Below the pieces are notes generated by a model, which had not been told where the DNA came from, did not search any database, and saw only the letters and a list, made by a program, of their open reading frames with translations. A DNA stretch of 63,804 bases, the filler included, from Lenisia limosa (lineage: Eukaryota > Protista > Breviatea), in the NCBI GenBank assembly GCA_001655205.1. It is 6 parts of 6 records of this genome, joined end to end, with 100 filler letters (N's around TTAATTAATTAA, not from the genome) between each part and the next. Parts side by side here need not be neighbours in the genome. Positions count along the whole stretch, not along the records: positions 31,790 to 53,808 come from LPNZ01008244.1; 5 more parts are not named here. The stretch is one strand, 5' to 3'. Each line of letters begins with the position of its first letter. Position 1 is the stretch's first letter. Position numbers and translations under genes: made by a program. This document shows positions 1 to 53,502 of this stretch, one piece after another.

Positions 1-2616
<2,616 letters not shown>

Positions 2617-36117: not shown

Positions 36118-36156
36118 CATCATAAGCAGCTAACCCGAAAAAGGGGGGGGGGTTTT
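36118..36156 (+). repeat. Left terminal inverted repeat (39 bp)
   Basis: CATCATAAGCAGCTAACCCGAAAAAG10TTTT is the exact reverse complement of 53464-53502. Confidence 0.95.
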
Positions 36157-36749
36157 TTTAGTTTTCAAATTTTCACGTTTTTTCATTTTTGATCACACTC
36201 TATAAAATGGGGACAAAAAGCACCACAGTGAAGGAGTACACCGCCATATGTGTAGCAAGCACCCCAAAAAGCACCGTAAAGCAAAGCAAGGGAAATAATT
36301 CTTAACTTTTATATTTTCATTTTCGATCTCACTCTAACAAAGCACCCAAAAAGCACCATAACAAAACAAAAGCACAACAAAACTTCCTCAGCTAATCTCA
36401 CACTTCATAGTTTTATACGTTACATAACGCATTTTTGGTAAAAAGTATACTGAGACAACCACTTCTCTTGATACCGATTGGGCCTCCCTTGGAAAAGTTC
36501 AAAAAAAATATATATTTCTGTATATAAAATGCCCAGAACAATATCAGTAGTATATAACCAATCCAAAAAATCAGCTATATGAACACAATATTATTATTCC
36601 TATACAAAACATCCAGTTAGATATGGGGACCGCGCGGGGAAAAAAAAGTTTTCAAAAATCGTTGTTTTTTTATAGTAATCACTAATCAATGATCTGTATT
36701 ATTAAATATCTGGAATCACAAATGACAAAATATTTATATATTAAATCAA

Positions 36750-37322
36750 TTAGTATACTTTGTCTTGAGCATCGACAACCTGAGAACCATCAGTAGCAAA
36801 GGTGATTTTATACACTACAACCTTAGAGCCTTTAATAAAACACAACCCGACAGTGGCTTTTTTACTGCATAAAGCGTCTACAGAAAACAAATCCTTAAAT
36901 TCGTCGTATGAAAATTTTTTCAATAAATACCACAGCACTCCAGATTTTTTTGGACACAATTGGTCAACAGATTCATGATGAACTCTCATATAAGAATTAA
37001 TACTTTTGAGTAATTGACTTCTAACTTTCTTAGAATCATCACCAGTACTAACTTTCAAATGAATTTTAAGGAAATTTTTTTCAAATCCTTCGTTTTGTTT
37101 TAATTCTTCTATTAGTCCTTCTTTCGGTTTAACACCAAGAACTTCATCATCAGATACATCTTCATCATCAGATTCATCAGATTCATCAGATTCAACACAA
37201 TTTCTAAAATCTAAATGTAGGTAAAAATTTTTACCAATATGATTAGATAAGCTTAAAATAGTGCCATTTCTTTCCTCTTCCTCGCTTTCAACAATAGAAA
37301 CAACAGCATTAGATATATCCAT
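36750..37322 (-). CDS. Viral hypothetical protein (190 aa) with an acidic SDE repeat
   Basis: The ATG at 37322 (MDISNAVV, A-rich context) is preferred over the upstream start in the ORF track. Contains VESDESDESDDEDVSDDE. Confidence 0.7.
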   Translation of the reverse strand: MDISNAVVSIVESEEEERNGTILSLSNHIGKNFYLHLDFRNCVESDESDESDDEDVSDDEVLGVKPKEGLIEELKQNEGFEKNFLKIHLKVSTGDDSKKVRSQLLKSINSYMRVHHESVDQLCPKKSGVLWYLLKKFSYDEFKDLFSVDALCSKKATVGLCFIKGSKVVVYKITFATDGSQVVDAQDKVY

Positions 37323-37729
37323 ATTTGTTAACCGATAAAAAAACAAACAAAAAAAAACACATAAAAATTCATTCCAATACCTCTTTTTCACTTAGTTTGA
37401 AGCTACAGTTAGAATTTTCAAAAATAGAAATTTTTGTTGAAAAACGGGGCTTAGCCACTAAAACCAGCCAATTCTGACTCATATAATATATGTATAATAG
37501 TATCACTAAACAGTTCCAGGGGGAAAGGGAAAAATCACTTTTTTTGATTTTTTTTTTGAAAAAGTTTTTGAAAAAAATGCAAAAAAGTTCAAAAAAAAAA
37601 AGAAGTTGAATTCATTAATTATTTATTGATTCTATGAAAGGGATTTTTGTTTAACAAAGAGTAACAGCTAGAAAAGAGTCAATAATGTTAAAACTAACTA
37701 TATTTTAAGTTAACGCAACCCCATGTATT

Positions 37730-38785
37730 TTAGATTTCTCGTATATTTCCACTTCGAGTCATTTTCGGAATATGCTGCCTCTGAACATTTTCCTTCTCAA
37801 TTACAGGCAAATAATCAATGTTTGTATGACCTGTATTAAGTAATAGATCCTCTTCATAGTAAAATTTATCATCAGTATCTCCCTTTTCGTAACCTTCACT
37901 TAAATAGTACTGCGTTGGATTTGTTTTTCCACGCTTTGTTGACTTATATATTATAAAGGTTTTTTCACTCCAGTTAGGAGAAACATGCCTGTCACGATCC
38001 ATTCTATTTCCAATAAATTTTCTCACTACATCCCCCACCTTTAATTTTCCTGGGGGTATATCTTTATATTCTTTCTTTTTTGGTTCTGCGTTGTGAAACT
38101 GAAGATTAACTGGTCTTTCATCAGTGGCACTGTGTACCTTGTGATTATACGCCCATACAGTATCCGCTAAATATGGTTGCCAGTCATAATTTACTCGCCC
38201 AGTGTTTAGTTCAATTTTTTTCATACGCTCATAAAACGGCAAACTAATTGTAGCATTGACACGCTCGACATAACTGTTTTCATTTTTCATATATGGCGTA
38301 TTAATTATCAAGTGACTTGGCCTTCCGTTAGGGCATCGTTTTGTTTTTAAATTATCTCTAAACAGTTTATTATCAAATTCTTTTCCTGCATCAGCCTGTA
38401 GTGCGGTTGGCCACTCCTTGCAGTCCGTTAGTATCATGTCTTCAAAGGCTGACCATACTTCCTGAGAGTTAGTTGACTTAATAGGCCGACTCATTAAATA
38501 TCTGCTTCTTACTATGAGGCAGTTTAGGCACAACACCTTCTTGGTACTTCGAGCACTAGCCAAGTAGAGAACATCAATCTGGTATCTATCATAATTGTTC
38601 TGGTACTGTGGGAAATGCACAAAGTTTTTAATTGGTCCCTTAGTCCTTTGGTAGATTTCATGTTCGCCTTGGTCCTTAACAAATGCCTCAACTTCAGCTT
38701 TCGTGTAGTCTAACCCTAATTCTTCAACAACATCGTAAAATCTTCCTGTGAATCCATACTTATTCCATGCTTCAATTAATTCCAT
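37730..38785 (-). CDS. Retroviral-like (rve) DDE integrase, Polinton type
   Basis: D71 (YQIDV), D132 (QADAGKEF), E174 (NSYVERVNATI), AYNHKVHS, and a C-terminal LKVGDVVR...PNWSEKTFII typical of Polinton integrases. Confidence 0.93.
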   Translation of the reverse strand: MELIEAWNKYGFTGRFYDVVEELGLDYTKAEVEAFVKDQGEHEIYQRTKGPIKNFVHFPQYQNNYDRYQIDVLYLASARSTKKVLCLNCLIVRSRYLMSRPIKSTNSQEVWSAFEDMILTDCKEWPTALQADAGKEFDNKLFRDNLKTKRCPNGRPSHLIINTPYMKNENSYVERVNATISLPFYERMKKIELNTGRVNYDWQPYLADTVWAYNHKVHSATDERPVNLQFHNAEPKKKEYKDIPPGKLKVGDVVRKFIGNRMDRDRHVSPNWSEKTFIIYKSTKRGKTNPTQYYLSEGYEKGDTDDKFYYEEDLLLNTGHTNIDYLPVIEKENVQRQHIPKMTRSGNIREI

Positions 38786-38815
38786 TTTAGTGAAACAAAA
38801 AAAATATTTTTTATT

Positions 38816-41800
38816 TTATGTTTTCAGGTTATCTCTAATTTTTTGGATCATTCTCTCTCTGCCCTCTTCAATTCCACACTTCTTATACAACACCTCAAGT
38901 ACCCTTGTGACATGCTTACTCTTACACCTCAGCATACATTTATTTTTGTTGTCAGAAATATTTATCTTGTTTAACAGTTCAGCCACCTCGTCAACAGCCT
39001 CGTATTCAATAATAGGAGCCTTAAACTTTTTTGCTTTAATGGCCATGCGTACATTCACACACTCCAAGTCATTTAAGTCTTTCATAATTTTTATGTACTT
39101 CTTTTCAAATACGTTTTCTACCATAGCAGCACTGAAGTAGTACACTCTACTTAAATAATGAATAGAGTGACAGTTTTCAAACTTCTTAAGCTTGGACTGC
39201 CTACCAGTCTTGTGAAACTGTAGTCTCTTCTCTAGTTTAAGTAAGTCTTCTTGACATGTGTCATCTAGTGATACACACTTACCTAAGTATTTCTTTAAGT
39301 CAATCGTGCTAGTAGTGTCTCCATACATATCGTTCTCATTTGAAACATACTTAGTGCTACCAACATAGCAAGAGATCTCATCTTCATCATTCATTTCGTA
39401 TATAAGGGCTACTCTAATTCTACGAGGCTTTAATTCAACCATCCCTTCATAGTTGTAAGGCTCAAAGACAATGTCTTTAACATTTTCGTAGTCAACAATA
39501 TTTACTTGGCTAATGTCTCTACACCTACTCAAGGCAACATAGAGTGCGTTTTTAGTGAAATATGGTTTCTTATTCCTTAACTCCACATGCACATTATAGT
39601 CACCTTCAATAGTACTACCTTGAACCTTGTGAGCTGTGATTGCGTAGGCCTTATCAAAGAACTCTGCAAACTCTGCTTCAGTTACCAATACGTTGTGGTC
39701 CAACTCCACTCGATCGTCTTGTACACCAGTGACAGTATAAATTTTCGAGTTCCAAATTTCTTTCTTACCTCTGTTAACCTTACCAATGTATTCTTCTCCC
39801 ACAATACTACCAGTGAAGCTGTTATTAATACTGTGCCTCAAACTATTGGTGTAGACAATATTTTTCTTGCACTTGGCCTTAGCTGTTGTATTGAACCCAG
39901 TGATATCACTCAGAGTAATAGTCTCACTTGCTGTAATCTTGTTCATAACTTCCAACGTACTGGGAGTATATCTGTTAGCATTTTCAATGTAGCTAAGTTT
40001 AATTAAATTTTTCATTTCTTGTTTCATCACATTATTATTCTCATAGTCATATGTCTGAACACTAACTGGAGGTAGTTGATTCATATCTCCAAACATAATC
40101 ATTCGTTTGTTCATATTCATAAGGCGACACATGGCGATCACACTTACACTACTGATTTCGTCAAGAAGAATTGTCTCGTAGTGGGCAACATTACTTTTGA
40201 AGAAGCTCTCAAGTGTATAGCTGTTATCACACCCTAGTTTCTTAAGGTTTTGAACAACGTAGTTAGTTGATGATACAACACAACAGTTCTCTGTCTCACC
40301 ATATACTTTGGTAAGCAGTGTTGTTTTACCACATCCAGCTCCGCCCAATACCATACAGTTTTCATTGTTACCAGGCAATTCAGTTACAATATTCCACTGA
40401 CTAAGTGTACATTCGATATCACGCCTTGGGTAGTCAGTACAAAGCAGTCTCTTCAAGTCCATAGGTTTATCCTTGTTGAGACGCAACCTATCTGAGTTCC
40501 TCGAAGCAAACCTCTCAAGTTTCTTGGAGCATTCTTCAAAGTAAATGGCGTCTGTTCTCACAGCTACTACCTCTTCGGGACATACATTAGCAATTTGAAT
40601 TAAGTTAATGAAGTTGGAATGGATAATTTGTCTGAAGATACTGCAGTTATCACTCACTTTACGCGACCTACTTGTGGATTTCACAAAATATAAGTCACCA
40701 ACCTTCTTCACCTTACTAAACATATTTTTCTCCATGAGGTCACGATACTCCAAGAAGTCAACCAAGTTACTGTCTGTACTGGTGTACGAGTTATTTGTTG
40801 CTGTATATTTTTTGTGAAGTGTACCAATGAAGCAGTTTGGCATATTTTTATTGTCCCCTAGTTCATACTTAATGTAGTCGAGCATTAACTTAAAGGTATC
40901 ACCCTTCAGGAATGAATAGGCTTGGATTCTCGCCGTAATTGCCAAGTCCAACTTAAGTGTCTTCAACACGTACTCAATAAAGATATAGTTATAAACTCCG
41001 GGCTTAAATGGAATATGGTTGATAGTGAATTGTTCAGCCACAAAGTACTCTCCACAAACAATATCGTCTGTTGGGTTGTATGTGTAAGGCTGGAAACTAT
41101 CCAAGTTGGTATATACTGGGAAATTATTTGTGTTGCTGTGTAAAATATTCCTATAGCACCTCTTCAAGTCAATTTCATAACATTCAGGTACAGGCATCTC
41201 TTCATCATCTTCATTATATTCTTGATCTGGAGTTTTTACTACACCAGTTATGGGACCAACAAAATTGTTATCAAAAATATTTCTTGTTCCCTCGTTATAG
41301 TACGACACAGGAATTTCACCCACCATACAGTCACACAATTTACGAGCCACTGATGAGTAGGTCATGTGATCGTCTCTAAACTGTTCGAAGGGAAACTTGG
41401 TCCTAATCTTTTTAGTATAGCTTAAGGGACACAGGCTAAACGAGTCAAGGCGTTCAATTAACATGGGACATTCTTTATTGGGATAAACCATTAGAGACAC
41501 TTCCATCCGTGAGTCAAAGTCCAAACTATTAATTTGAGTTCCTGTTGTTTCGTGAATAGCAGCAACAATTGGTTCAAGAGGATTTTTAATAATAATTCTT
41601 CTGTAACCTTTCGTGTAGTAGTCCATCATTTCCTTTTCAGAAAAGCCATAGACATCTTCACTACTGAGGTCCAGTGTTTTAGGGTTTAAGTCTTGAATTT
41701 CAATCATTCTGTCCTTGCCAGCCAGTGTGCGTATGTCGCCATTACCATACAATATTTGCTGAATAACGTCTACGTCAGTAATGAGGTCGACATGGTTGTT

Positions 41801-42976
41801 GTTCACATATATACAAATTACGTTGTCAGTTTTTTGGGACTTGTCATGTTTGTTGTACCGAACTAGTACCTTCTTGTCAGGTCCAACTACATAGGCCGTA
41901 ACACTCGGATACCTGTCAGTCCAAACATCTAGGTCCCCAATAGAATAATTACAGTCCTTACCAACAACCTTGTTGAAGTCATTAAAGAATTCAGGTTTAC
42001 TCATTGTTTTGAAGGGAGATCGGAACTTACACTTATCCCATAATATGGTAACTAAGCACTTGCCGTCCTCACTTGGAACATAGTAGTTTAAAAATTCCTG
42101 TTTCAAGACTTCTTGACCAATCAGTAAAGCATTAATATTGATTTTGTTAATGGGATGAATATTTAAAACTTCAATGAGTTCTACTTTGCCTCCACTATCA
42201 ATGAATCCATCCTCTCTGTCAAGTTCCTTCTGGACTGCAAACTGTAACTTAACGTTTTCAATCCCTGTATCCATGTCTTTTGGCACAAAGAATTGTTCTA
42301 CTGACTGCCATCTCGTCTTAGTGGTACCCAAACGATCTTCACCTCCGTCCTCTGGTTTAAATTCATAAAGCACAGTGACTCTGTAGAGATTATGGGTCTC
42401 AAACTTAGCTACATTATCAATGATTCTTGTTAATTCAGCAGGAGTAAACTTCTGGAGATTTACAACGCCTAAGGTATCATAGTTGTCCTCCAAAAGCTGT
42501 GTGATACGCGATAAGTCATTGGTTCTTACACCTCTGGTAGCTCCTAAGTTTTTAGTGTAATCACTCTTCTTAGTAGCAGCTCTAGTCTTACGCAGTTTAT
42601 CAACAGCATTCTTAACGTTCTTGACGGTTTTATTGTTCAAGACAATATTGTTATCCTTAGCGTATTGCTGGTACTTGTAGTCATTGGTTGTCTTATCAAT
42701 TGGATCAGCCCTAGCCCTTCTTGTACCCTTTAATATATTTGTAAAGTCAGGAGCAGTGTTAGCTCTCTGTTTTTGTTTCTCTTCAATAGCTTTCATTTGT
42801 TCCACTATAGCTAAATATTCTCTCTGACTAATCTTATGGCTAGTCGTATTGTTTGAATACTTGTTGTTATAGAGATCAATGTTGGCTTCTTTAATTTTGT
42901 TTTTTTTGTAGGCAGTTACTCCCTCAGAGGGGTCAATAACCTTTTTACCGTACCTGTGCAATTGGGTGTTTTTCAT
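38816..42976 (-). CDS. 1386-aa replication protein: OTU-like domain, derived family-B polymerase, SF1 helicase, GIY-YIG-like domain
   Basis: PolB motifs EIDLKRCY (D603), KNMPNCFIG and VRTDAIYF (D809). SF1 motifs GGAGCGKTT, LLDEIS, FGDMNQLPPV, AYAITAHKVQGST and LYVALSR. C-terminal IYE...CYVGST...RLQFH. N-terminal PSEDGKC (C307) and NNHVDL (H395). Confidence 0.85.
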   Translation of the reverse strand: MKNTQLHRYGKKVIDPSEGVTAYKKNKIKEANIDLYNNKYSNNTTSHKISQREYLAIVEQMKAIEEKQKQRANTAPDFTNILKGTRRARADPIDKTTNDYKYQQYAKDNNIVLNNKTVKNVKNAVDKLRKTRAATKKSDYTKNLGATRGVRTNDLSRITQLLEDNYDTLGVVNLQKFTPAELTRIIDNVAKFETHNLYRVTVLYEFKPEDGGEDRLGTTKTRWQSVEQFFVPKDMDTGIENVKLQFAVQKELDREDGFIDSGGKVELIEVLNIHPINKININALLIGQEVLKQEFLNYYVPSEDGKCLVTILWDKCKFRSPFKTMSKPEFFNDFNKVVGKDCNYSIGDLDVWTDRYPSVTAYVVGPDKKVLVRYNKHDKSQKTDNVICIYVNNNHVDLITDVDVIQQILYGNGDIRTLAGKDRMIEIQDLNPKTLDLSSEDVYGFSEKEMMDYYTKGYRRIIIKNPLEPIVAAIHETTGTQINSLDFDSRMEVSLMVYPNKECPMLIERLDSFSLCPLSYTKKIRTKFPFEQFRDDHMTYSSVARKLCDCMVGEIPVSYYNEGTRNIFDNNFVGPITGVVKTPDQEYNEDDEEMPVPECYEIDLKRCYRNILHSNTNNFPVYTNLDSFQPYTYNPTDDIVCGEYFVAEQFTINHIPFKPGVYNYIFIEYVLKTLKLDLAITARIQAYSFLKGDTFKLMLDYIKYELGDNKNMPNCFIGTLHKKYTATNNSYTSTDSNLVDFLEYRDLMEKNMFSKVKKVGDLYFVKSTSRSRKVSDNCSIFRQIIHSNFINLIQIANVCPEEVVAVRTDAIYFEECSKKLERFASRNSDRLRLNKDKPMDLKRLLCTDYPRRDIECTLSQWNIVTELPGNNENCMVLGGAGCGKTTLLTKVYGETENCCVVSSTNYVVQNLKKLGCDNSYTLESFFKSNVAHYETILLDEISSVSVIAMCRLMNMNKRMIMFGDMNQLPPVSVQTYDYENNNVMKQEMKNLIKLSYIENANRYTPSTLEVMNKITASETITLSDITGFNTTAKAKCKKNIVYTNSLRHSINNSFTGSIVGEEYIGKVNRGKKEIWNSKIYTVTGVQDDRVELDHNVLVTEAEFAEFFDKAYAITAHKVQGSTIEGDYNVHVELRNKKPYFTKNALYVALSRCRDISQVNIVDYENVKDIVFEPYNYEGMVELKPRRIRVALIYEMNDEDEISCYVGSTKYVSNENDMYGDTTSTIDLKKYLGKCVSLDDTCQEDLLKLEKRLQFHKTGRQSKLKKFENCHSIHYLSRVYYFSAAMVENVFEKKYIKIMKDLNDLECVNVRMAIKAKKFKAPIIEYEAVDEVAELLNKINISDNKNKCMLRCKSKHVTRVLEVLYKKCGIEEGRERMIQKIRDNLKT

Positions 42977-43029
42977 GTTGCTTCTAATTTATGGAAAAAA
43001 AAATAATTATTTTAGTTTTGAAAACAATG

Positions 43030-43356
43030 TCATTTTTTGCAACTAGCACAAAGCTTACATGGTCGACCATATTTCTTCTTAATTATTGTGTCACCGCACT
43101 TTGCACATTTGTTCAGTTTAGCGACTTCTTTGTCGTATACTTCTTGGCAGTCCTTGATGTTATGAAATTTTCGCATGTGTGTTTTATATGTTTCTTTTGT
43201 TTTATAGTCCTTATCACAAACGTGACAGGTGTATGGTTTTACCACTTGTGGTTTACATTTTCCTGTTTCAGCAGATTTAGCAGTGTGATAAAAGTACGCT
43301 GATCGAGAGAAGGGTTCGTTACAATCGGGGCAGTTTTTGTAAAATGGTTTTGTCAT
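43030..43356 (-). CDS. Small viral zinc-finger protein (C2H2 plus extra Cys pairs)
   Basis: CPDC...H, CHVCDKDYKTKETYKTHMRKFH (canonical C2H2), CAKC and CKLC. Confidence 0.8.
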   Translation of the reverse strand: MTKPFYKNCPDCNEPFSRSAYFYHTAKSAETGKCKPQVVKPYTCHVCDKDYKTKETYKTHMRKFHNIKDCQEVYDKEVAKLNKCAKCGDTIIKKKYGRPCKLCASCKK

Positions 43357-43453
43357 GCTTTTAAGATTTTTTAATTTTAAAAAATGATATTTTAAAAATA
43401 TATTTTTTTCGGAACTTATTTTTTAAATATATTTTGTATAAAAAACAGAAGAC

Positions 43454-43912
43454 ATGTCATTCCTAGACTTCGTAAAGAACGGTAGTGCCGCTACTACTAC
43501 CACCAATGCTACTAAAATCCCAAATTATGAGGATTGCGTTAAACCTAATGAAACATACTGCTTGCACAACTACACCAAAACTAAGAACAGTAATGGAAAT
43601 TATTATATGATCTTAAATTATTCCAAGGACGGTATTAAAGACAATGCTGAAGCTATGTTCGCTCATCCCTGTATGTTCAGAGAAGTAACTGCAGCATTTA
43701 AACATAAATCAACTGCCTTAGAAGAGAATTATAAAAATGCCTTTGTGTACTTCAAGTATATTGGTAAAACAAAGAAACTACTTAAGTATGTTATCAGATG
43801 TGAAAAGGGTGAACAATGTGCTCCGAGTTTTGGACTAGTCGATGTCGGAGATAGTGATAGTGATAGTGATGAACAACCCGAATATACTAAGTGTAGCGAT
43901 AGTGATGATTAA
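43454..43912 (+). CDS. Viral hypothetical protein, candidate ssDNA-binding protein
   Basis: Intact ORF with an A-rich start. Tyr/Phe/Lys-rich strand-like core and a strongly acidic tail (DSDSDSDEQPEYTKCSDSDD). The function is inferred. Confidence 0.6.
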   Translation: MSFLDFVKNGSAATTTTNATKIPNYEDCVKPNETYCLHNYTKTKNSNGNYYMILNYSKDGIKDNAEAMFAHPCMFREVTAAFKHKSTALEENYKNAFVYFKYIGKTKKLLKYVIRCEKGEQCAPSFGLVDVGDSDSDSDEQPEYTKCSDSDD

Positions 43913-43983
43913 ATAAAAAAATATTTTTTTTGGACTCCACTAAAGTTGTTTTGGTATATGCCAATAAAAAAAAATTTTTTTTT

Positions 43984-44388
43984 TTACATAAATCTTTCAG
44001 GTTTGATATACCGAATATTCTTTTTTAAGTAACGATCGCACTGCTTAAGCATACCAGTTACATCTTTGCCATGTATAAACTCGTCATAGTTATTAGTTCT
44101 AGCACTACACTTACCATAGCTACACAGGTCCCAAGACAGATCCCAGAGGTTAATGCAATCACCCTTCCATAAATCCATTTGGGCCATAATTTCTTTCATT
44201 GAAAAATAATTATTGGACTGCCTACAAAACATGCTAGCAGTTTCATCTGAGTGTAGTACTCTCTTATTAAGGTATGCTCCAAAATTTACCAGGAAGCCTT
44301 CAGTGTCTTCAAGTAATGCACATGTGTGTCTACGGATAAAATCCATATCTCTTATGTTGTCAATATTAAAATTACAATCGTTCGACAT
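43984..44388 (-). CDS. Viral hypothetical protein (134 aa)
   Basis: Intact ORF between intergenic palindromes, starting in an A-rich (AAGAAGATG) context. No motif recognised. Confidence 0.65.
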   Translation of the reverse strand: MSNDCNFNIDNIRDMDFIRRHTCALLEDTEGFLVNFGAYLNKRVLHSDETASMFCRQSNNYFSMKEIMAQMDLWKGDCINLWDLSWDLCSYGKCSARTNNYDEFIHGKDVTGMLKQCDRYLKKNIRYIKPERFM

Positions 44389-44451
44389 CTTCTTTTTTTA
44401 TAGTTTAAAAAAATGATAAAAAATATTTTTTAAAAAAGTAACTTTTTTGGA

Positions 44452-45765
44452 CTACTCGATAAACTTGTTAATAGTCTCGATGTTGTGTTCAGGATTATCT
44501 TCCTCGAAGTACTGATACAGATTATAGTACGGTATGGTCTTCAGCATATTGTAAACTGCAATACAGTAGTAGCCACACAGTGCTGTGTCATCATTTTGTA
44601 TTTGAATATCATTTCGAATAATTTGTTTATCCGCAAAATTGTTGGTAATCAGTTCCTCATCAGCTATACTACCGAAACTATCAAAGTAGAACCACAGCTT
44701 ACTATTTAGCTTGTAAAGCAGTACCCAGTGTACACCACCAGTTGTGTCTATACCGTCTTTAGTCTTCTTCATGTTACCAGTATTAATGATTGCTCCCAGA
44801 GTATCTTTTTTGGCAAAGTATTCTTTAATACCTTTTTCATCACTCATAAAGGTTTTTATATTGTACTTCTCCTCTATCTCTCTGTTACTGAGTGCAGGTG
44901 CATCAATACCAATATCTGGTTCTATGTCTTCTTCTTCTTCTCCTTTGTTGCTGTAAATCTGTTCAACATCATATAACTCGTTACGTACTATTACGTCCTT
45001 GTCAGCTTTTAACCCTTGCTTCATTCGCGGTTCTAATAGAGAGCCAATTAGTTTCCAGTGACCAGCTCTAACACGTGTGTGCTTAATCCTGTCTTGAGGG
45101 AAAAAGGCAATACATGGCTTGTCCTCCTCGTTATCAAAGGCATTGATGATTTCATTTCCAAACTTCACACTACGAACTCTACTCAGCCCCATGTTTTCTC
45201 CGATGAAGGTTGCAACCGCTATTTGGCTGTCATTCATGTGTCCAAACGAATAGAACGCCTTGGCATTTTCCTTGATTTCATTGAAGTCCATTCTACCATT
45301 CTTCCACTTGTGTACCACAATGGTTGGACTGATATTGAAGTGCCTGCCACTCGTGAACAAGGGAGAGATTTGTTTTATAACATCCTTGTGTACTATGTCA
45401 TCAAATATAACTTCATAGCTGATTTCATCTGGATGGTCTTTAGCTGCATCTGCTGCTTTTTTCTTAATAAACTCATAGTCTATACTTGTTGAGCTTAAGT
45501 CAATGATGTCTAATTTAATATTTCTTTCGGTTGCTAGTTCATCCAGTGTTTTTAATATGGGTTGGTCAGTTGAGGTCGTATATACCAAGTACCCTGTAGA
45601 CTTCCTGTCTTGAAGAACGTCAAATACTAAATGAAAAGTTTTTCCACTACCTGTTCCTCCAATCATAACTGTACCGAAACAGCCATCTGGAGTAAATTTA
45701 GAGCGATGGACTTTTTGGACTTTGTTTTGATCGTCCAATAATACTTGCTTTTTAGAAATTGTCAT
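44452..45765 (-). CDS. A32/FtsK-HerA packaging ATPase fused to an adenain-type cysteine maturation protease
   Basis: Walker A GGTGSGKT (K42), Walker B VIFDD and LFTSGRHFNIS. Protease GVHWV (H346), FYFDSFG (D362) and QNDDTALCGYYC (Q390/C397). Confidence 0.9.
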   Translation of the reverse strand: MTISKKQVLLDDQNKVQKVHRSKFTPDGCFGTVMIGGTGSGKTFHLVFDVLQDRKSTGYLVYTTSTDQPILKTLDELATERNIKLDIIDLSSTSIDYEFIKKKAADAAKDHPDEISYEVIFDDIVHKDVIKQISPLFTSGRHFNISPTIVVHKWKNGRMDFNEIKENAKAFYSFGHMNDSQIAVATFIGENMGLSRVRSVKFGNEIINAFDNEEDKPCIAFFPQDRIKHTRVRAGHWKLIGSLLEPRMKQGLKADKDVIVRNELYDVEQIYSNKGEEEEDIEPDIGIDAPALSNREIEEKYNIKTFMSDEKGIKEYFAKKDTLGAIINTGNMKKTKDGIDTTGGVHWVLLYKLNSKLWFYFDSFGSIADEELITNNFADKQIIRNDIQIQNDDTALCGYYCIAVYNMLKTIPYYNLYQYFEEDNPEHNIETINKFIE

Positions 45766-45812
45766 TTTGTAGAAAATAATTTTATAAATATAATTTACAA
45801 AAAGAGTAAAAA

Positions 45813-47573
45813 ATGAAATCAGACCCAGAGAAGGAAAAATCTCGTGCGTTGAAAATACGAGAGCTCAACCAACTATTAGGGTTAGAGTACGCTTACCGTG
45901 ATGAAAGGTACGCCAGTGTTCTCGATGAAAATGGGAATATAAATAAGACTGCCACCAATGCTGTTGCAAAAGTACATAATAATGCAGCTAAAGCTAAAGC
46001 TGAAATTATAAAGGATGAAAACTTTAAGTATAACTCAGCGATGGAACAAAACAAGGCCATACGTGAGGACGTTGAAGATATTAAGGATATACTTGCTGAA
46101 AAACAATCTCAAAAAAAGTCTGTGGTGACAAGTGCATCGGGACCTGAATCTGAACCCGAACCTAAAAGAAAATATCAAAATAAACCCATGGCTCGCATAG
46201 TTGACATGAGTAATAAACCACGTAAACAAGGTGTGAACAAAACTAGCAGTAATCTGGAACCCATGATGTATAATAGTAGAAATGTCGTAAAGAAGACCAC
46301 CAAACCGAACTATGACGGCAAAGAGTTTAACTCTGCCGAAGATGCAGTTCTCCAGTTTATGGAATTTAAGAACAGTAAATCAAAGTATGATGGGTGGAGA
46401 CGAACACCTCCCGGTAAACTTACCAAGGACAACCCGTATATTTCCTTTAAGGTTAAAAACGAATATGCAGATTTTACTCCAAACGAATTTAATGAAGTAA
46501 AGCAGTACATACAGAAAATTAGAAACATTCACACGAATCACTTTGGTATGTGGCTCTTCCAAATTATTAAATATGATAAGGATGTTATTTCAAGTGAGGA
46601 CTTAAAAAGAGATTATCCAGACAATTACGAAGGTTGGGGACGTACTGAAGAAGAGTTTGCAGAGGCCCAGAGCAGGGAATGGGTGGAGAGGACGTTTGAG
46701 AAAGCTAGGAAGAGAAGAGAATTGGAAGCTAAGGAACAAGATGAAGCGTTCGCACAATTTGAAAAGGACAATGTCGACCCAACATGGTCACCTGAGGGGG
46801 AGGAGTACAATGGTAGACAACAGGAAGCTACAATGGATCGCCTCCAAATGAATAAACTTGATATTGTGTTATTAGGCAGTACTATTGCCAAAAAGATAAG
46901 CGAAGTTGTCGACCTAATTGACATAACACCTCGAGACTTCTTCTACATTATCTGGGAGTCTAGACAAGATGTAAATCCTGAAGGACGTAAAGCTTTGGAA
47001 GCTTTTATTGCTTCAACTGATGAAATAGAAGGTGCAGGTAAAAAACAAAAAAATAGACGTGGTAAAAGTCACAACTCTATGTGTATTTATCAGGATGGTA
47101 CACTTGGAAAACTTAAGTTTAATATGGGTGAACTACTCTTTAATAACTTTGCTAGTTGTACTGACCAGGACGGTAACGTTGTGTTGAATGAGGCAGTAAG
47201 TCCGCACATTACCGGGTTCTTAACAACAATGCATAGTACTAAGTACAAAGATATCAGCAAGGAAGATAGAGATCAGATTAGGAAAATTGTTGTTAAAGCT
47301 GATATTATTCCGAATAAAAATAATTCAAAGTTTAAACTAATTGCTGAGGATCACGAACCTTTGTTGATTCCAAAGAAGGCTACTAAAAAGTTCCTGAAAG
47401 AAAAGTTTAATGAACTCGTTGGAATTTATGCACAAGGTAATGGCGAACCTGGTAGTAACATCCATGATAACTTGCTCCGGATTATTAAGGAGTTAGAAGA
47501 GAGAGACACTAAACCTAGTGAAATTACTATGATGAAGAGAAAGATGATGGGCGGACAGAGATTCTTCTTCTGA
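45813..47573 (+). CDS. Viral 586-aa protein, candidate core/virion protein
   Basis: Long intact charged ORF with adenain-consensus sites IEGA|G and MMGG|Q. The C-terminal ELVGIYAQGN...IIKEL helix is reminiscent of conserved uncharacterised Polinton proteins. Confidence 0.7.
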   Translation: MKSDPEKEKSRALKIRELNQLLGLEYAYRDERYASVLDENGNINKTATNAVAKVHNNAAKAKAEIIKDENFKYNSAMEQNKAIREDVEDIKDILAEKQSQKKSVVTSASGPESEPEPKRKYQNKPMARIVDMSNKPRKQGVNKTSSNLEPMMYNSRNVVKKTTKPNYDGKEFNSAEDAVLQFMEFKNSKSKYDGWRRTPPGKLTKDNPYISFKVKNEYADFTPNEFNEVKQYIQKIRNIHTNHFGMWLFQIIKYDKDVISSEDLKRDYPDNYEGWGRTEEEFAEAQSREWVERTFEKARKRRELEAKEQDEAFAQFEKDNVDPTWSPEGEEYNGRQQEATMDRLQMNKLDIVLLGSTIAKKISEVVDLIDITPRDFFYIIWESRQDVNPEGRKALEAFIASTDEIEGAGKKQKNRRGKSHNSMCIYQDGTLGKLKFNMGELLFNNFASCTDQDGNVVLNEAVSPHITGFLTTMHSTKYKDISKEDRDQIRKIVVKADIIPNKNNSKFKLIAEDHEPLLIPKKATKKFLKEKFNELVGIYAQGNGEPGSNIHDNLLRIIKELEERDTKPSEITMMKRKMMGGQRFFF

Positions 47574-47575
47574 TA

Positions 47576-47593
47576 AAAAAAAATATTTTTTTT
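47576..47593. terminator. A8-TA-T8 palindrome between convergent viral stop codons, representative of an element-wide motif
   Basis: Perfect 18-bp palindrome filling most of a 22-bp gap between convergent genes. Similar palindromes occur in most viral spacers. The terminator role is inferred. Confidence 0.5.
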
Positions 47594-47595
47594 AT

Positions 47596-48306
47596 TTAGA
47601 CCTTCGTAGTATACAGCTCCTCATAGAAAGGAACGTGAGGAAACATTCTATGTCTACCATAGCCCTCCTTTCGTTTGCTGTAAGGCAAGGATGAAAGTCC
47701 TCCTTTTTTGTTGTAAGGTAGTGTTGAAAGTCCACCATTAAATTTACCTTTGCCGTATTTATCATAGGCATAGTCAGCAGCTTTAGTAGCTACATAAGAA
47801 GCAGCAAAGGCCGCAACTGGACCGAAGCCACCTTGTTTGTAATAGTCACCACTACCCATATCGACATCATCACCATCATCGCCCATACTTTCCTGTGCTT
47901 TGTCCTTGTAGTACTTAACTTCATCCTTAAGTGAGTCGATTTGATCAACATAACCGGCTACTTCTTTTGCTATAGCAGCTGGGTCACTCTTAACTCGCTC
48001 TACAAAGTCTGCAACAGTGTCTTCAAATGTGTCAACATTTTGTTCAATTTTATCTGCATATTTTAGTCCTTTTTCAATTGATGCAGCAAAAGGAACTTCT
48101 TCTTTAATTGTGTCAACAACCTCACTTGCTATTGGGTTCTTACGTACTTCCTTACTAATTTTGCGTCCGGTATTCGCAGCCTGTTTTACAGTGCTCCTTG
48201 CCTTCTTCGCGGTTTTCTTTAGTTTCTTGAACAAACCCTCTCCCTCATATTCGTAGTTGAAATCATCATCGCTGAAATCATCATCCTCTGGTTCAAAAAA
48301 TGACAT
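47596..48306 (-). CDS. Viral 236-aa protein, candidate protease-matured membrane-penetration or core protein
   Basis: Acidic leader (aa 1-23), then EGE|GLFKKLKKTAKKARSTVKQAA (basic amphipathic helix). Several GG and GxG sites at the C-terminus. Confidence 0.7.
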   Translation of the reverse strand: MSFFEPEDDDFSDDDFNYEYEGEGLFKKLKKTAKKARSTVKQAANTGRKISKEVRKNPIASEVVDTIKEEVPFAASIEKGLKYADKIEQNVDTFEDTVADFVERVKSDPAAIAKEVAGYVDQIDSLKDEVKYYKDKAQESMGDDGDDVDMGSGDYYKQGGFGPVAAFAASYVATKAADYAYDKYGKGKFNGGLSTLPYNKKGGLSSLPYSKRKEGYGRHRMFPHVPFYEELYTTKV

Positions 48307-48380
48307 TGTTTTCGAAATATTATACTCTTTTTGAAAAAATATATTATTTTAAATTATTTTAAAAAAGAACCAAATTAAAA

Positions 48381-49808
48381 ATGTCAACGAACTTTATTGA
48401 ATCCATGTTGCGTGTCGATGACAAGAGCCATGATATTACGGTCGAAAGTGTTATTGACCACCAAATAGAAAATACTACTTCACAAAATGAACCAACTGTA
48501 ACTTTTAAGTTAAGTACAGACGCGTCTTCATTCATTGAAACAAGTACTCTCTCTATTTATTGGAGAGAAAAATTAGAACTAGCAAATGGAGGCGTTTATA
48601 ATCTTGCAGCTACTACTGCTGTTGACGATACTGCTGAAGCTATATCTGGAAAACAATCCTTCGTCTATGCTAATTCTTATCACCAAATTAAGTCAATTAA
48701 AATATACAGTAATGGAACAGATATCTTACCTCCTGTTGATAATTCTACTGCAGGGATTATAGCGGATAACTATATGGATAAATATTACACTAATGACTAC
48801 TTGGATACAACTGGCCTTACTGAATTTGTTTTCAATCCAAGAAGTGAGAACACTGCTGCTCTCGGTAAAGCCGTTTATATTGGTGGTAATTATGTTGAGC
48901 GTGAAATTTTGCTTCCAGTGTTGTTCCCATTTATGAAGACTAATCCCGTTTTACCTCCCTCTTCGTCATATATGTTTGAGATTACTTTCAGAGACTCTTC
49001 AGAAAGTATTTGTAAAACCAGTGATGCTGCACTTCCTGTAAAGATAGACCGTGAAAAGGTTGTGCTAAAGAATCGTAAAATTAAATTGTCAGATAAAGGC
49101 AGAGCAGCTTACTTGCAAGGACTTTCCATTATTGACGATAAAATTGTACACACATACCTTCATCAAAGGATTTCAAATCCTGTACAAATAGGGTCAGCTA
49201 AGGTTACTGAGACTAGTACTTGTAATGTTGACAATCTCGCAACAGCGATAGACACTAAGGTTATTGATTGGGGTGCTTCTAGGGCAACTGGAACCTATGT
49301 GACAAGAAGGCTGAAAAGTCATCAGGTTGACATTGGTATTGATACATTTCCTAGGAATGGATATGAGAACAAGCTTGCCACCAATGATGTATTCAATTCT
49401 TATGTCCGTTATAGACGTGCGTGTATGAATTCAAGCGCTACACACAAAGATGTAGTGTTAACTATTAAGGACTTTAAAAATGCAAACGGAAAATGGCTCG
49501 ACTGTATTGACGTGTTACCAGACCGGATTCATCGCCAATTTCTGACAACTACCAATAATCAAGTTATTGATAAAATTGAGTTAGAAAATGCACCTGGGAA
49601 TTCTAATACTTATTTGTACACTTGTACGTTTGGTGATGCTGTCCTACTGTATGATGGAAAGCAAAGTGGAAATTTTAAAACTATTTATACCAAAACTCCA
49701 CTGGAAAACAATCCAAAATTGGATGTTAAGAAAACTATGCGCCAAAACAAAGCAGCAATGAAAGCAAGGAATGCTAACCCTAATGCTGAAACAGAAATTG
49801 AGAGCTAA
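48381..49808 (+). CDS. Major capsid protein (double jelly-roll, Polinton-like)
   Basis: 475 aa and beta-rich. VTFKL...FIETSTLSIYWREKL, HQIKSIKIYSNGTDI and LLPVLFPFMKTNPVLPPSSSYMFEITF follow the Polinton MCP pattern. It lies in the structural module near penton and fibre. Confidence 0.75.
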   Translation: MSTNFIESMLRVDDKSHDITVESVIDHQIENTTSQNEPTVTFKLSTDASSFIETSTLSIYWREKLELANGGVYNLAATTAVDDTAEAISGKQSFVYANSYHQIKSIKIYSNGTDILPPVDNSTAGIIADNYMDKYYTNDYLDTTGLTEFVFNPRSENTAALGKAVYIGGNYVEREILLPVLFPFMKTNPVLPPSSSYMFEITFRDSSESICKTSDAALPVKIDREKVVLKNRKIKLSDKGRAAYLQGLSIIDDKIVHTYLHQRISNPVQIGSAKVTETSTCNVDNLATAIDTKVIDWGASRATGTYVTRRLKSHQVDIGIDTFPRNGYENKLATNDVFNSYVRYRRACMNSSATHKDVVLTIKDFKNANGKWLDCIDVLPDRIHRQFLTTTNNQVIDKIELENAPGNSNTYLYTCTFGDAVLLYDGKQSGNFKTIYTKTPLENNPKLDVKKTMRQNKAAMKARNANPNAETEIES

Positions 49809-49858
49809 ATAATAAATTATTAAAAATTTAAAAAATATTTTTTTTTATATTTAAAAAA

Positions 49859-50506
49859 ATGTCATATCCGAAAATACCAATTCAAGATAATCCATACCTA
49901 CCTTCTGCACCACCACTTACAAAATCCGCATCTATCTTACTTAAATGTGGGTGTAGTGTAGCATATGAAGATAGAAAAAAACCATGCATTAAACACAACG
50001 ACAAAAAGAAGTTGATTGAACTTACACTAGATGAGGAACGTGGTGCAGAAAAAATTGTTCCTGATGAGTTAATCAAATATAACGAATTTAAGGCTTGTGC
50101 CCGAAAATATTTTAATGTTAAGGACATCTACAATTCCGAAAGCGACAAGGTTGAGGTGTTCATCATCCAGAAAAATAAATTTGTAAAGAGAAAGAGTAAC
50201 TGGATAAAAATTGATGAAAATAAAATCCAGGAATACACCAGTTATATGGTTAGTGAACAAGGGACTACGGATATGGAGTTGTGTGTAAAACAACACGGTA
50301 AGGCTGTCAAGGTTCTAACTAACAAAGAGTACAGAGAAGGGTTGCGCAAGCAGAATGGGCAACTTAATATTTCAAGTATCTATAAAAAAATAACAAAACG
50401 AGGTCTCCTCATTGGAACAGGCACAGTTATAGCGTTTTTTCTTAACCCTGTCCTTGGGGCTTTCACTGCCTTTTCTGGGGGTGTCTATGAAAATACAAAA
50501 AAATAA
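49859..50506 (+). CDS. Viral 215-aa protein with an N-terminal PSAP motif and a C-terminal hydrophobic segment
   Basis: MSYPKI...YLPSAPPL at the N-terminus and LLIGTGTVIAFFLNPVLGAFTAFSGGVY at the C-terminus. Confidence 0.7.
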   Translation: MSYPKIPIQDNPYLPSAPPLTKSASILLKCGCSVAYEDRKKPCIKHNDKKKLIELTLDEERGAEKIVPDELIKYNEFKACARKYFNVKDIYNSESDKVEVFIIQKNKFVKRKSNWIKIDENKIQEYTSYMVSEQGTTDMELCVKQHGKAVKVLTNKEYREGLRKQNGQLNISSIYKKITKRGLLIGTGTVIAFFLNPVLGAFTAFSGGVYENTKK

Positions 50507-50550
50507 AGCAATTTAAACCTTTAAAAATATATTTTTTTTGAAATAAAACA

Positions 50551-51306
50551 ATGAGACAAATACAATTTACGTTCCAAGGTGCTGAAGGCGAAATTAATTT
50601 TAACCCCGCACTGAGAGTAGAAGAAAATTCAAGGATACGACTGAACTTACTAACTTTCCCAAATTACATATACAACATACATCCAGATAACAATGAAGTG
50701 TCAGTTACATACATGGGGACTACGTACACGCGTAACATTCCAACAGGAGTGTACTCAAACATGGCACTGATGAATGACACATTAAATACATTATTTTATC
50801 CTGAACTACCTGTTAACTGGGTAGTTATCGGTACTAATGGTTCATCTTACAAGGTAGGGTTTATGCTACTTGATGGAGTAACACTAGATCTGAAAAATTT
50901 AGGTAAATTCTTTGGGTTTTCTAATGGGGTATTGGTTGGAACTACAGAAATGACTTCATCAGTGGTTGATGGAGTACTAGTTAATGCAGTCACAAATAAA
51001 TTGTATACAGCCGATCAATTTCCAGACATGTCTAATGGAGTTGATGTAGTTTACATTCGGTGTAACCTGGTTAAAACCCAATTTAATAATGACAAGTACT
51101 CTGAAATATTGGAAATTATGCCATTCACTGGTAACACAGGAGATTTGATAAGCTATACACAAGAAAACCTCAGTAACGTTGCAAAACCGATGAAAACAAA
51201 TGTGGTGAATAGCGCTAAAATTAGTTTAGGTGATAAAGCTGGTAATTTACTCTACTTTGGAAGCGGATTAAACGACTACACAACTGTTGTATTAATTATA
51301 GAATAA
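50551..51306 (+). CDS. Minor capsid (penton) protein, single jelly-roll
   Basis: YNIHPDNNEV...IPTGVYS...LNTLF and VYIRCNLVKTQF...SEILEIMPF are characteristic of Polinton/PLV/virophage pentons. Confidence 0.85.
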   Translation: MRQIQFTFQGAEGEINFNPALRVEENSRIRLNLLTFPNYIYNIHPDNNEVSVTYMGTTYTRNIPTGVYSNMALMNDTLNTLFYPELPVNWVVIGTNGSSYKVGFMLLDGVTLDLKNLGKFFGFSNGVLVGTTEMTSSVVDGVLVNAVTNKLYTADQFPDMSNGVDVVYIRCNLVKTQFNNDKYSEILEIMPFTGNTGDLISYTQENLSNVAKPMKTNVVNSAKISLGDKAGNLLYFGSGLNDYTTVVLIIE

Positions 51307-51334
51307 ATAAAATATTTTTTTTTATATTAAAAAA

Positions 51335-53188
51335 ATGGAACTACCAAGTGGATGGATTACGAGTGGGTCAATAAAAAATGGGACCACTGCTTCTGGAGAG
51401 ACCGTATCTTCTGTAGCAGGACCTGCCGGGATTGGGTTTAATTTAGATGATGATTTAAACTTTGATATTGGTGGAAAGAAATTGGTGAACGTCGCTTTGC
51501 CTGAAAATGATGGTGACGTATGCACTAAAAAATACGTAACAGAAAAAATAATTGAAGACAATATATTAGACGCTACTGCCATACAGAACAGTGCCAACAC
51601 TATTGGTGCTCAAATTACAGCGTTAAACACTACACAAGCTGGAGTTTATGATGATAAAATTTTACCAGCATATAATCACTCAGTTGAGGAGCATTTTGAA
51701 CCGCAGTTATTTCAAGACCATCTCACTGCCCACTTTGCCGGAACATACTNNNNNNNNNNNNNNNNNNNNNNNNNNNNNNATTTAAAAGTAGAAGGTGACT
51801 TTGAAGCAACTGGTTTCAAAATTACTCAAAGCGATATAGTTTATAATAATAGAACGTGGGCAACCCAGTATAACAGTGATCCTGTTGACAACATTGTTTT
51901 CAATATGAAATCGCCAAATGTTTTCAATGTTAGAAGTATCTCATTAACTCTGGAAGCAAGTAAAATTTCTGATGGAAGTAGATGTGGCGCTGATGATGTA
52001 ACTGTTATCTTATCCATCAATAGTGTTGTTAAAGTTCAATTAAATAATTATAAGTTTACCTCATGGGGACTGAATACTATAGCAATAGCTGATGTGAACA
52101 ATCCCATTCAAATTAATGCTAATGATATTATACAAATTGAAATGATAAATAATTCTGCTGATAGAAAAATAGTAACTAAGTTTCAAGACAAAATTGACGC
52201 TGAATTTATTAGTTTGAACATGGATGGAGATTTATCAATCGAAAAAATGATTGAGCTCAGGCTTGTTGGAATTGAAATTGATACATCTACAATACTAGCC
52301 ACCGAATGGGATGAAGGTGAAGGAAGACATATTCTAAATGTAAGTGAACGATTAAAATTAGGTGCTTTTGATAACGTTGAAACTGAAATGAATACAATGA
52401 GTGACCGAATTGATAGTGTAGAACTTAATAATACCAATCAAGACATATTTATTGCTGATCATAGCACTCGGATTACTAATTTAGAAGCTGCAGGTGGTAC
52501 TGATTTAACACCGCTTGAAAACAGAATAACAACTGTTGAAGGAACTTCTAATACAAACAGTGGAACCATCACTAATATTAATTCAACCCTTGGAAACCAT
52601 ACAACTTCCATAACTGGTCTAAATACAACAGTAAATCCTTTTATGGGATACTTTAACACAATCAAAGAAAAATTTAACAAGATGTTAGAATTACATAGTG
52701 TAATAGGACATATGGCTGCTCAATTCCAAACTACAGGACCTGCTGCTATTCCTAATGGTCAATTAACTACACATATTCCTTTTGAAGCTGGTTCTAATAT
52801 ATCAGGTTATGTCGAGGGATTAACCAACGCTTCAACAGGGAAAATGTTAATATTAAAGGATTGTTTATTTCTTATTGAAGCAAACTTATACTTTGATAAT
52901 AGTTTAGACGTGTCTAACACAGGTAGTCTAAATCTTGCAATAGCAGTTAATGGTGAAAGTAATTGGATGCAAACCGTTAGGTCCCATGAAACAGCACCAA
53001 CTTTCACTATAAATAGTTCCAAATTAATGAACTTATATGCTAACGATGAAATTCAGTTAGTTATGGATCATAATAATCGAGATGGGTTGACACATGGTAA
53101 TAACACTTACTATACACATTCTTCATGGTCTTTGACTATTATCCAGCCTAAAGAAATGAATAGTTTATCACCCATATCAGACTATTAA
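51335..53188 (+). CDS. Fibre/spike protein with a coiled-coil stalk and C1q-like head; frame across the 30-N gap unverified
   Basis: Fibre collar motif KLVNVALPENDGDVCTKKYV, heptads (RIDSVE..RITNLE..RITTVE), and a C-terminal TGKMLILKDCLFLIEANLYF...IAVNG...SSKLMNLYANDEIQLVM. Confidence 0.7.
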   Translation: MELPSGWITSGSIKNGTTASGETVSSVAGPAGIGFNLDDDLNFDIGGKKLVNVALPENDGDVCTKKYVTEKIIEDNILDATAIQNSANTIGAQITALNTTQAGVYDDKILPAYNHSVEEHFEPQLFQDHLTAHFAGTYXXXXXXXXXXXLKVEGDFEATGFKITQSDIVYNNRTWATQYNSDPVDNIVFNMKSPNVFNVRSISLTLEASKISDGSRCGADDVTVILSINSVVKVQLNNYKFTSWGLNTIAIADVNNPIQINANDIIQIEMINNSADRKIVTKFQDKIDAEFISLNMDGDLSIEKMIELRLVGIEIDTSTILATEWDEGEGRHILNVSERLKLGAFDNVETEMNTMSDRIDSVELNNTNQDIFIADHSTRITNLEAAGGTDLTPLENRITTVEGTSNTNSGTITNINSTLGNHTTSITGLNTTVNPFMGYFNTIKEKFNKMLELHSVIGHMAAQFQTTGPAAIPNGQLTTHIPFEAGSNISGYVEGLTNASTGKMLILKDCLFLIEANLYFDNSLDVSNTGSLNLAIAVNGESNWMQTVRSHETAPTFTINSSKLMNLYANDEIQLVMDHNNRDGLTHGNNTYYTHSSWSLTIIQPKEMNSLSPISDY

Positions 53189-53463
53189 ATAAAGAATATA
53201 TTTTTTTTGAGTTACTATCAAAGGGGAGGCACCACGTTCTTTGTTTTGTCTTTTATATTATTGCTCTGTTGATGTTTGTTATAAGAGGTGATTTGAGGTA
53301 TTGGTATCCAACTTAAATCCTCATATAGTTCATGCTTGAGGTGTGTCTTTTTGTGTTGTCGCGTGCGTTTTGCGTTGTTCTGTGTAAGGAGAGGTGATTT
53401 TAATGGGATGTTGCATTGGCGTCCATTCTGAAAAAAAAAAGTTTTGAAAAAAAGTAATTATTT

Positions 53464-53502
53464 AAAACCCCCCCCCCTTTTTCGGGTTAGCTGCTTATGA
53501 TG
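53464..53502 (-). repeat. Right terminal inverted repeat (39 bp)
   Basis: AAAAC10TTTTTCGGGTTAGCTGCTTATGATG is the exact reverse complement of the left TIR. Confidence 0.95.

Follow-up and report, generated by a model that had tools for sequence, protein, structure and literature searches.

A candidate protease-matured virion precursor encoded beside the capsid gene of a polinton-like virus in Lenisia limosa

What might be the role of a small orphan gene that stands head-to-head with the major capsid gene of a virus-like element in the breviate Lenisia limosa? The gene is an intact ORF of 236 aa (47596..48306, minus strand) in a window of 63,804 nucleotides, the whole stretch of DNA that was analysed, which joins six parts of the assembly GCA_001655205.1; positions 31,790 to 53,808 come from record LPNZ01008244.1. 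The initial annotation proposed an acidic pro-peptide that masks a cationic amphipathic helix, and hence an entry protein activated by a protease. The ORF it pointed to is real, but the acidic helical body that makes up residues 58–152 was overlooked.

The gene belongs to an element of 17.4 kb (36118–53502), bounded by perfect inverted repeats of 39 nt (36118..36156, plus strand, and 53464..53502, minus strand), with an intact 6-bp target-site duplication, TTAACC, just before the left repeat and just after the right one. Encoded on the minus strand are an rve-type integrase of 351 aa (37730..38785), a protein of 1386 aa whose SF1 helicase domain lies close to the C-terminus (38816..42976) and an A32-like packaging ATPase that forms a single ORF with a Peptidase_C5-like protease (44452..45765). 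On the plus strand lie the double-jelly-roll (DJR) major capsid protein of 475 aa (48381..49808), divergent from the orphan gene, a probable minor capsid protein of 251 aa (50551..51306), assigned because of where it lies, how large it is and how it weakly matches (E 0.001) the gene next to the protease in two viral contigs, L031 and L032, and an ORF of 617 aa (51335..53188), which contains a run of N and is possibly a fibre gene. A C2H2 finger is also encoded. Because of its inverted repeats, target-site duplication, integrase, A32-like ATPase, C5-like protease and DJR capsid protein, the element is a polinton-like virus. Its 1386-aa helicase protein is Tlr1-like in size and layout, a comparison taken from the accessible text of PMC5499653, and the SF1 helicase is found instead of a polymerase B (pPolB), for which there was no match in the element; the protein-primed DNA polymerase B that would mark a strict Maverick/Polinton is absent from the Pfam matches.

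The capsid assignment came from the ESM Atlas (features 0.96–0.97; TM 0.72/0.84 to a PF21738 cluster). An AlphaFold2 model of the capsid protein was poor (pLDDT 37), and a fold search with it returned nothing. Four relatives of the capsid protein were found, three of them fragments, and neither the viral-contig scans nor two metagenome scans gave a relative of the element. Very divergent capsids are noted for metamonad elements in the accessible part of 10.64898/2026.06.19.733378.

Several further features of the element and window can be recorded here. A palindrome composed of an A-run, TA and a T-run recurs between the genes of the element, in the majority of the gaps and at both convergent junctions (38799, 43916, 44418, 47578, 49830 and about 51310). 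It may mark 3′ ends as a hairpin, in the manner of Mimiviridae and Sputnik, and would in that case hint that the element depends on a giant virus. The two ends of the element (36118–36123 and 53497–53502) begin CATCAT, despite the lack of a polymerase B match, and in this they resemble adenovirus termini. Two host gene pieces lie in the window, at 1891–2190 (plus) and 17462–17725 (minus); one is a WD40 fragment, and the other we take to be pyruvate:ferredoxin oxidoreductase-like, although it has no Pfam match. The flanks have the appearance of intron-rich eukaryotic DNA, and the second piece would point, tentatively, to an anaerobic protist.

The protease is central to any maturation of the orphan protein. 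Its Peptidase_C5-like domain scored just under the Pfam cut-off (E 0.0012), and the best PDB matches of a profile built from it were adenovirus proteases (E 0.00016). The residues H346, D362, Q390 and C397 were invariant in an alignment of six sequences, and by these comparisons the element encodes a predicted adenain-fold protease with its catalytic residues in place. One full-length relative of the ATPase–protease protein (39% identity over 98%) and one protease-only match were found; since the fusion is also present in the full-length relative, it is not a local frameshift.

The orphan protein is built of blocks of alternating charge (residues 1–23, −11; 24–57, +12; 58–152, −14; 161–236, +7). 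The very acidic leader that had been noticed at residues 1–23 (48238..48306, minus strand) is exceptional for this composition: when the protein was shuffled 100,000 times, only 7 of the results had an equally acidic leader. It ends at a GxG junction, G22-E23-G24, followed as the initial annotation had it by a Lys/Ala-rich run; the predicted cut, of Gx|G type, falls between E23 and G24 with Tyr at P4 (residues 20–24; 48235..48249, minus strand), and the helix that follows starts exactly at the predicted P1′ residue. This cationic amphipathic helix (residues 24–57; 48136..48237, minus strand) has its best periodicity at 101 degrees. The hydrophobic-moment analysis that had been suggested for it bore out its amphipathic nature: the 18-mer 24–41 has a moment of 0.54, a mean hydrophobicity of −0.02 and a charge of +8, and a charge of at least +6 with an equal moment occurred in 4 of 2,000 whole-protein shuffles (p about 0.003 when the 18-mer was shuffled on its own). 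The hydrophobic face is small, with L25, F26 and L29 followed by Ala, Thr and Val, and the helix is rich in Lys, Ala and Thr overall.

Beyond the cationic helix, residues 58–139 form an acidic amphipathic helical body (47890..48135, minus strand), and it is the acidity of 58–152 that gives the whole protein a pI of 5.2. Apolipoprotein-like families, these in the body, and YtxH, DUF948 and stomoxyn families appeared in Pfam for this protein far below the cut-off, and we read them as the signature of a generic amphipathic helix and nothing further. The Gly-rich tail (residues 150–236; 47599..47859, minus strand) carries seven GG/GxG sites and, after one of its GG sites, an Ala/Tyr-rich helix that is not amphipathic (residues 161–184; 47755..47826, minus strand). 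A single-sequence AlphaFold2 model of low confidence (mean pLDDT 44.6) places helices at 21–55, 58–70, 73–107, 109–139 and 162–184 and leaves the leader and the tail as coil; a fold search with this model gave no match. The protein has no Cys, no Trp and no PPxY motif.

Homology contributed little. A search over protein lengths of 129–413 returned only the protein itself, no homologue was found in viral contigs, and no Pfam family scored above its cut-off. In the ESM Atlas the leads reached only 0.80–0.81, a level that shuffled proteins attain one third of the time. Contigs assembled from sequencing runs gave short partial matches only, none from the RNA run, and are uninformative on expression. 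Two contigs of one run match positions 47846–47880 (35 bases, 5 differences) and then diverge, possibly as the gene of a sister element or as a chance match in low-complexity DNA.

The glycine motifs provide a more quantitative handle on the protein. Its 236 aa hold eight sites of the form GG|x or Gx|G, whereas the 12 other ORFs of the element, together 4,902 aa, hold 23; at their rate 1.1 sites would be expected (Poisson p 2e-5), and shuffling at fixed composition gives p 0.003. It is the most motif-dense protein of the element. The five C-terminal motifs listed by the initial annotation (MGSG, KQGG, FNGG, KKGG and EGYG) are all present, and two more were found, GGFG at 159–162 and YGKG at 184–187. 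The remark that most P4 residues deviate from the adenain consensus was also correct, for none of the eight sites fits the strict form, (M/L/I)xGG|x or (M/L/I)xGx|G, and two have an aromatic P4 (Y20 and F189). We regard the non-consensus P4 residues as a weak obstacle, since the sites of the mavirus protease are described, in the accessible text of PMC6048507, simply as GG|X and GX|G. The same text reports that this protease leaves some GXG sites uncut, and therefore not all eight sites need be used. With motifs of this kind and a clan CE (C5-like) protease in the same element, the protein has what characterizes a mavirus-type substrate, and its cleavage is a prediction from that pairing. After 23|24 the next site is 152|153, so placed that a predicted fragment 24–152 of 14 kDa, with a net charge of −2, would keep the helix on the acidic body; the last predicted fragment is of 20 aa.

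In the last 300 residues of the capsid protein there is no GG/GxG motif. Unlike the mavirus major capsid protein (MCP) it thus lacks a C-terminal GG tail, and the protease therefore needs another main substrate. Since the element has the protease, a capsid protein without such a tail and, in the orphan gene, its most motif-dense protein, we conclude that the latter is probably a protease-matured internal precursor of the virion. A second candidate substrate is encoded by an ORF of 586 aa (45813..47573, plus strand): only five residues follow its strict adenain-type site (MxGG), and a cut there would free them as a C-terminal peptide.

How such a precursor might act can be outlined as follows. 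The protein would be packaged under the capsid, where the protease would cut E23|G24 and sites in the tail, leaving the 14-kDa fragment that starts with the helix, together with short basic tail peptides. At uncoating the helix would bind an anionic membrane and the amphipathic body would add lipid contact; until then the leader would keep the helix quiet or dock the precursor to the capsid. That the helix, once freed by the element's own protease, acts on a host membrane during entry is a suggestion we make tentatively, as something less than an even prospect. The acidic helices of fragment 24–152 could also bind its cationic helix after the cut, and this continued attachment to an acidic body of 95 residues counts against lysis.

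As a stand-in for relatives of the element, a comparison set was assembled from 36 viral loci (IMG/VR contigs) fetched via their protease, of which 25 were used after 11 judged near-duplicates had been dropped. A GG-rich protein was picked by motif density in 18 of the 25 loci, the remaining 7 having no chosen candidate, and a helix was scored where a site was followed by an 18-mer with a moment of at least 0.45 and a non-negative charge. This layout was found in 12 of the 18 GG-rich proteins (9 of 12 when close kin were collapsed) but in only 6 of the 196 other ORFs of the 25 loci, and per site in 14/182 as against 6/450. Inside the GG-rich proteins, which were themselves chosen for motif density, the helix excess at sites is only twofold (14/182 versus 127/3,266 distant windows). 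Thirteen of the 18 GG-rich genes directly follow a gene of 500–670 aa, which we take to be a virophage capsid gene, and the contigs to be virophages, although this gene had no capsid match in PDB or Pfam. One contig, L004, carries its genes twice, as an inverted repeat centred on 2504–2711, probably an artefact of assembly or amplification.

The orphan protein shares with the GG-rich genes (L001–L034) the layout of a site followed by a helix and the many GG/GxG motifs, but it is acidic (pI 5.2), whereas all 18 comparison proteins are basic (pI 9.6–11.3). Its helix is also more polar than all of theirs (−0.02 versus 0.01–0.50, median 0.26), a further point against lysis. When it was compared by phmmer with 302 ORFs, the top eight matches were all GG-rich proteins, aligned at the first helix and the tail, with a best E of 0.042. 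A whole-protein profile of 16 GG-rich proteins gave it 4.9 bits, a score matched by 16 of 1,000 shuffles when these were global and by 48 of 1,000 when they were local, and hhalign with the whole-protein profile gave nothing (probability 0.1%). A profile of hand-delimited post-site segments aligned in register to residues 21–36 (hhalign E 0.0004, probability 35%); with a similar ungapped segment profile an unrelated frame was the only one of the 340 window ORFs to score above the protein, whose score was reached by 5 and by 12 shuffles in 1,000. The likeness to the GG-rich proteins thus appears suggestive but borderline.

The top PDB matches of the segment profile were two lytic peptides, latarcin 2a (E 0.12) and dermadistinctin K (E 0.48), both starting at the predicted P1′ glycine and neither significant. 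By hand calculation the hydrophobicity of their first 18 residues is 0.40 and 0.18, respectively, as against −0.02 for the orphan protein. Pfam Antimicrobial_2 was matched by 5 of 15 post-site segments at E up to 10 (best 0.0011). We read the segment-profile and peptide matches as a shared type of peptide, not as descent.

The best-known protein of comparable design is adenovirus pVI, for which a leader, an amphipathic helix and C-terminal processing are described in the accessible part of PMC8310329, along with a DJR capsid and a C5-type protease. The orphan protein likewise has an N-terminal leader and then an amphipathic helix, in an element with a DJR capsid protein and a C5-type protease. 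It differs in its helix, more polar than the comparison helices, in the lack of a strict consensus site, PPxY, Trp and Cys, and in having seven further sites in the tail. The 11-residue protease-activating peptide at the C-terminus of pVI has no counterpart, there being no Cys and a last predicted fragment of 20 aa; Cys belongs to that peptide in pVI. No pVI match was seen in Pfam to E 10, nor in PDB by phmmer with residues 17–60 and 150–206. Residues 161–184, a moderately hydrophobic helix after a GG, were also considered as a pX-like segment, but they scored −1.7 bits against a profile of such segments (60 of 1,000 shuffles as high), and Pfam gave nothing for them, though it likewise failed to pick out the segment in L031's PLA2 protein; this reading gained no support. 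The analogy to pVI drawn in the initial annotation is supported in part, by the protease, the motif density and the recurring layout; homology to pVI or pX is not supported. The protein would work like pVI but, by its sequence, is not a member of that family.

Related ideas have been put forward for other viruses. Adintoviruses, which carry an integrase and an adenain, are proposed in the accessible text of PMC8502044 to encode the membrane-active virion proteins Cupiennin, GasderminX and PLA2X, and one of their virion proteins is said there to resemble a lytic spider peptide; the accessible part of 10.1101/2025.02.07.637071 merely uses the Cupiennin label. The same account (PMC8502044) describes adintoviruses as restricted to animals, and the present element differs from them further in its SF1-helicase protein and the absence of a pPolB match. 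It is like them in being of the polinton class, with an integrase, an adenain-fold protease and a candidate membrane-active protein. Pfam gave no cupiennin match for this protein to E 10 and no PLA2 or gasdermin domain, the same scan having detected the PLA2 in L031. Adomaviruses are fish viruses with circular genomes. Their LO6, a virion core protein encoded beside the capsid genes, is suggested to be a pVI/pX fusion, and in virions it forms bands of lower mass, read as probably adenain-cleaved (10.1101/341131, accessible text). The orphan gene likewise adjoins a capsid gene, and the Foldseek match to LO6 is meaningless (E 1.3). In mavirus the C-terminal domain of the MCP is cut by the protease into basic fragments, and a predicted amphipathic helix is proposed to rupture endosomes (PMC6048507, accessible text); there the GG sites lie in the tail of the capsid protein, whereas in our element they lie in a separate gene. 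With such proposals in print for mavirus, adintoviruses and adomaviruses alike, the concept of protease-matured membrane-active virion proteins is no great surprise; the setting here is new and very divergent. No description of a separate protist-element gene with this layout was found in the literature searched, including the accessible part of PMC6905037, and supplements may hold one.

An alternative is that the protein is a protease-cleaved scaffold or DNA-to-capsid linker that is not lytic. The basic helix and tail would then hold the genome or serve for import, while the leader and body, being acidic, would attach to the capsid or shield the basic parts as a chaperone does; once cut, the protein would let the genome go from the shell. 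The Lys/Ala/Thr-rich helix with its small hydrophobic face and the two basic segments (+12 and +7) agree with this, and the same role has been proposed for the basic tail of the mavirus MCP (PMC6048507, accessible text). However, the protein is net acidic, unlike a condensing core protein; its charged and hydrophobic residues are segregated at about 100 degrees beyond what shuffling gives, which plain DNA binding does not need; and the comparison helices at the same site are often little charged (median +1). We consider a linker conceivable but rather doubtful.

Within the explanation by membrane entry, the strictest version is that of the initial annotation, in which the acidic leader masks the helix electrostatically and nothing more than the loss of this leader is needed to start lysis. 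The leader does abut the +12 helix directly and is, as noted, more acidic than chance readily allows. But none of the 18 comparison leaders, which are short or basic, has a negative net charge, so that masking by an acidic leader is not supported as a general mechanism; a second acidic region, 58–152, would remain attached after the cut; and in adenovirus it is hexon, according to the accessible part of PMC8310329, that shields the helix of the precursor by binding it. Strict masking is therefore unlikely. It is similarly improbable that the protein is a non-structural helical or coiled-coil protein with incidental glycine motifs and Lys-rich helix, as the want of a homologue, of a family above cut-off and of a fold match for the low-confidence model would allow, given that its motifs outnumber those expected from the element's other ORFs or from shuffling, the position in the capsid gene block and the recurrence of the layout in other protease-encoding contigs.

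If the protein is indeed a virion precursor with an entry helix, it bears on how the DNA of polinton-like viruses and virophages passes a host membrane, and it offers a concrete and cheap test case, for the cut site is specified, the cognate protease domain spans about 150 residues and the helix 34. It would be a bolder step, and one of which we are quite unsure, to suppose that protist polinton-like viruses and virophages in general have in their virion module a gene, so far overlooked, whose product is an entry helix resembling an antimicrobial peptide and released by the protease, a functional counterpart and possibly a forerunner of adenovirus pVI; the present element would then be a variant with a built-in acidic off-switch. 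The comparison does mark an unannotated GG-rich gene beside the capsid and protease genes of many viral contigs as a candidate entry or core protein. In L001 (1963–2715), L014 (3726–4568), L025 (7188–7970) and their kin, all from IMG/VR, such an unannotated basic gene lies between a large gene and the protease and encodes a lytic-peptide-like helix after an N-terminal GxG, and these genes are a better-sampled place to test the idea of an entry helix.
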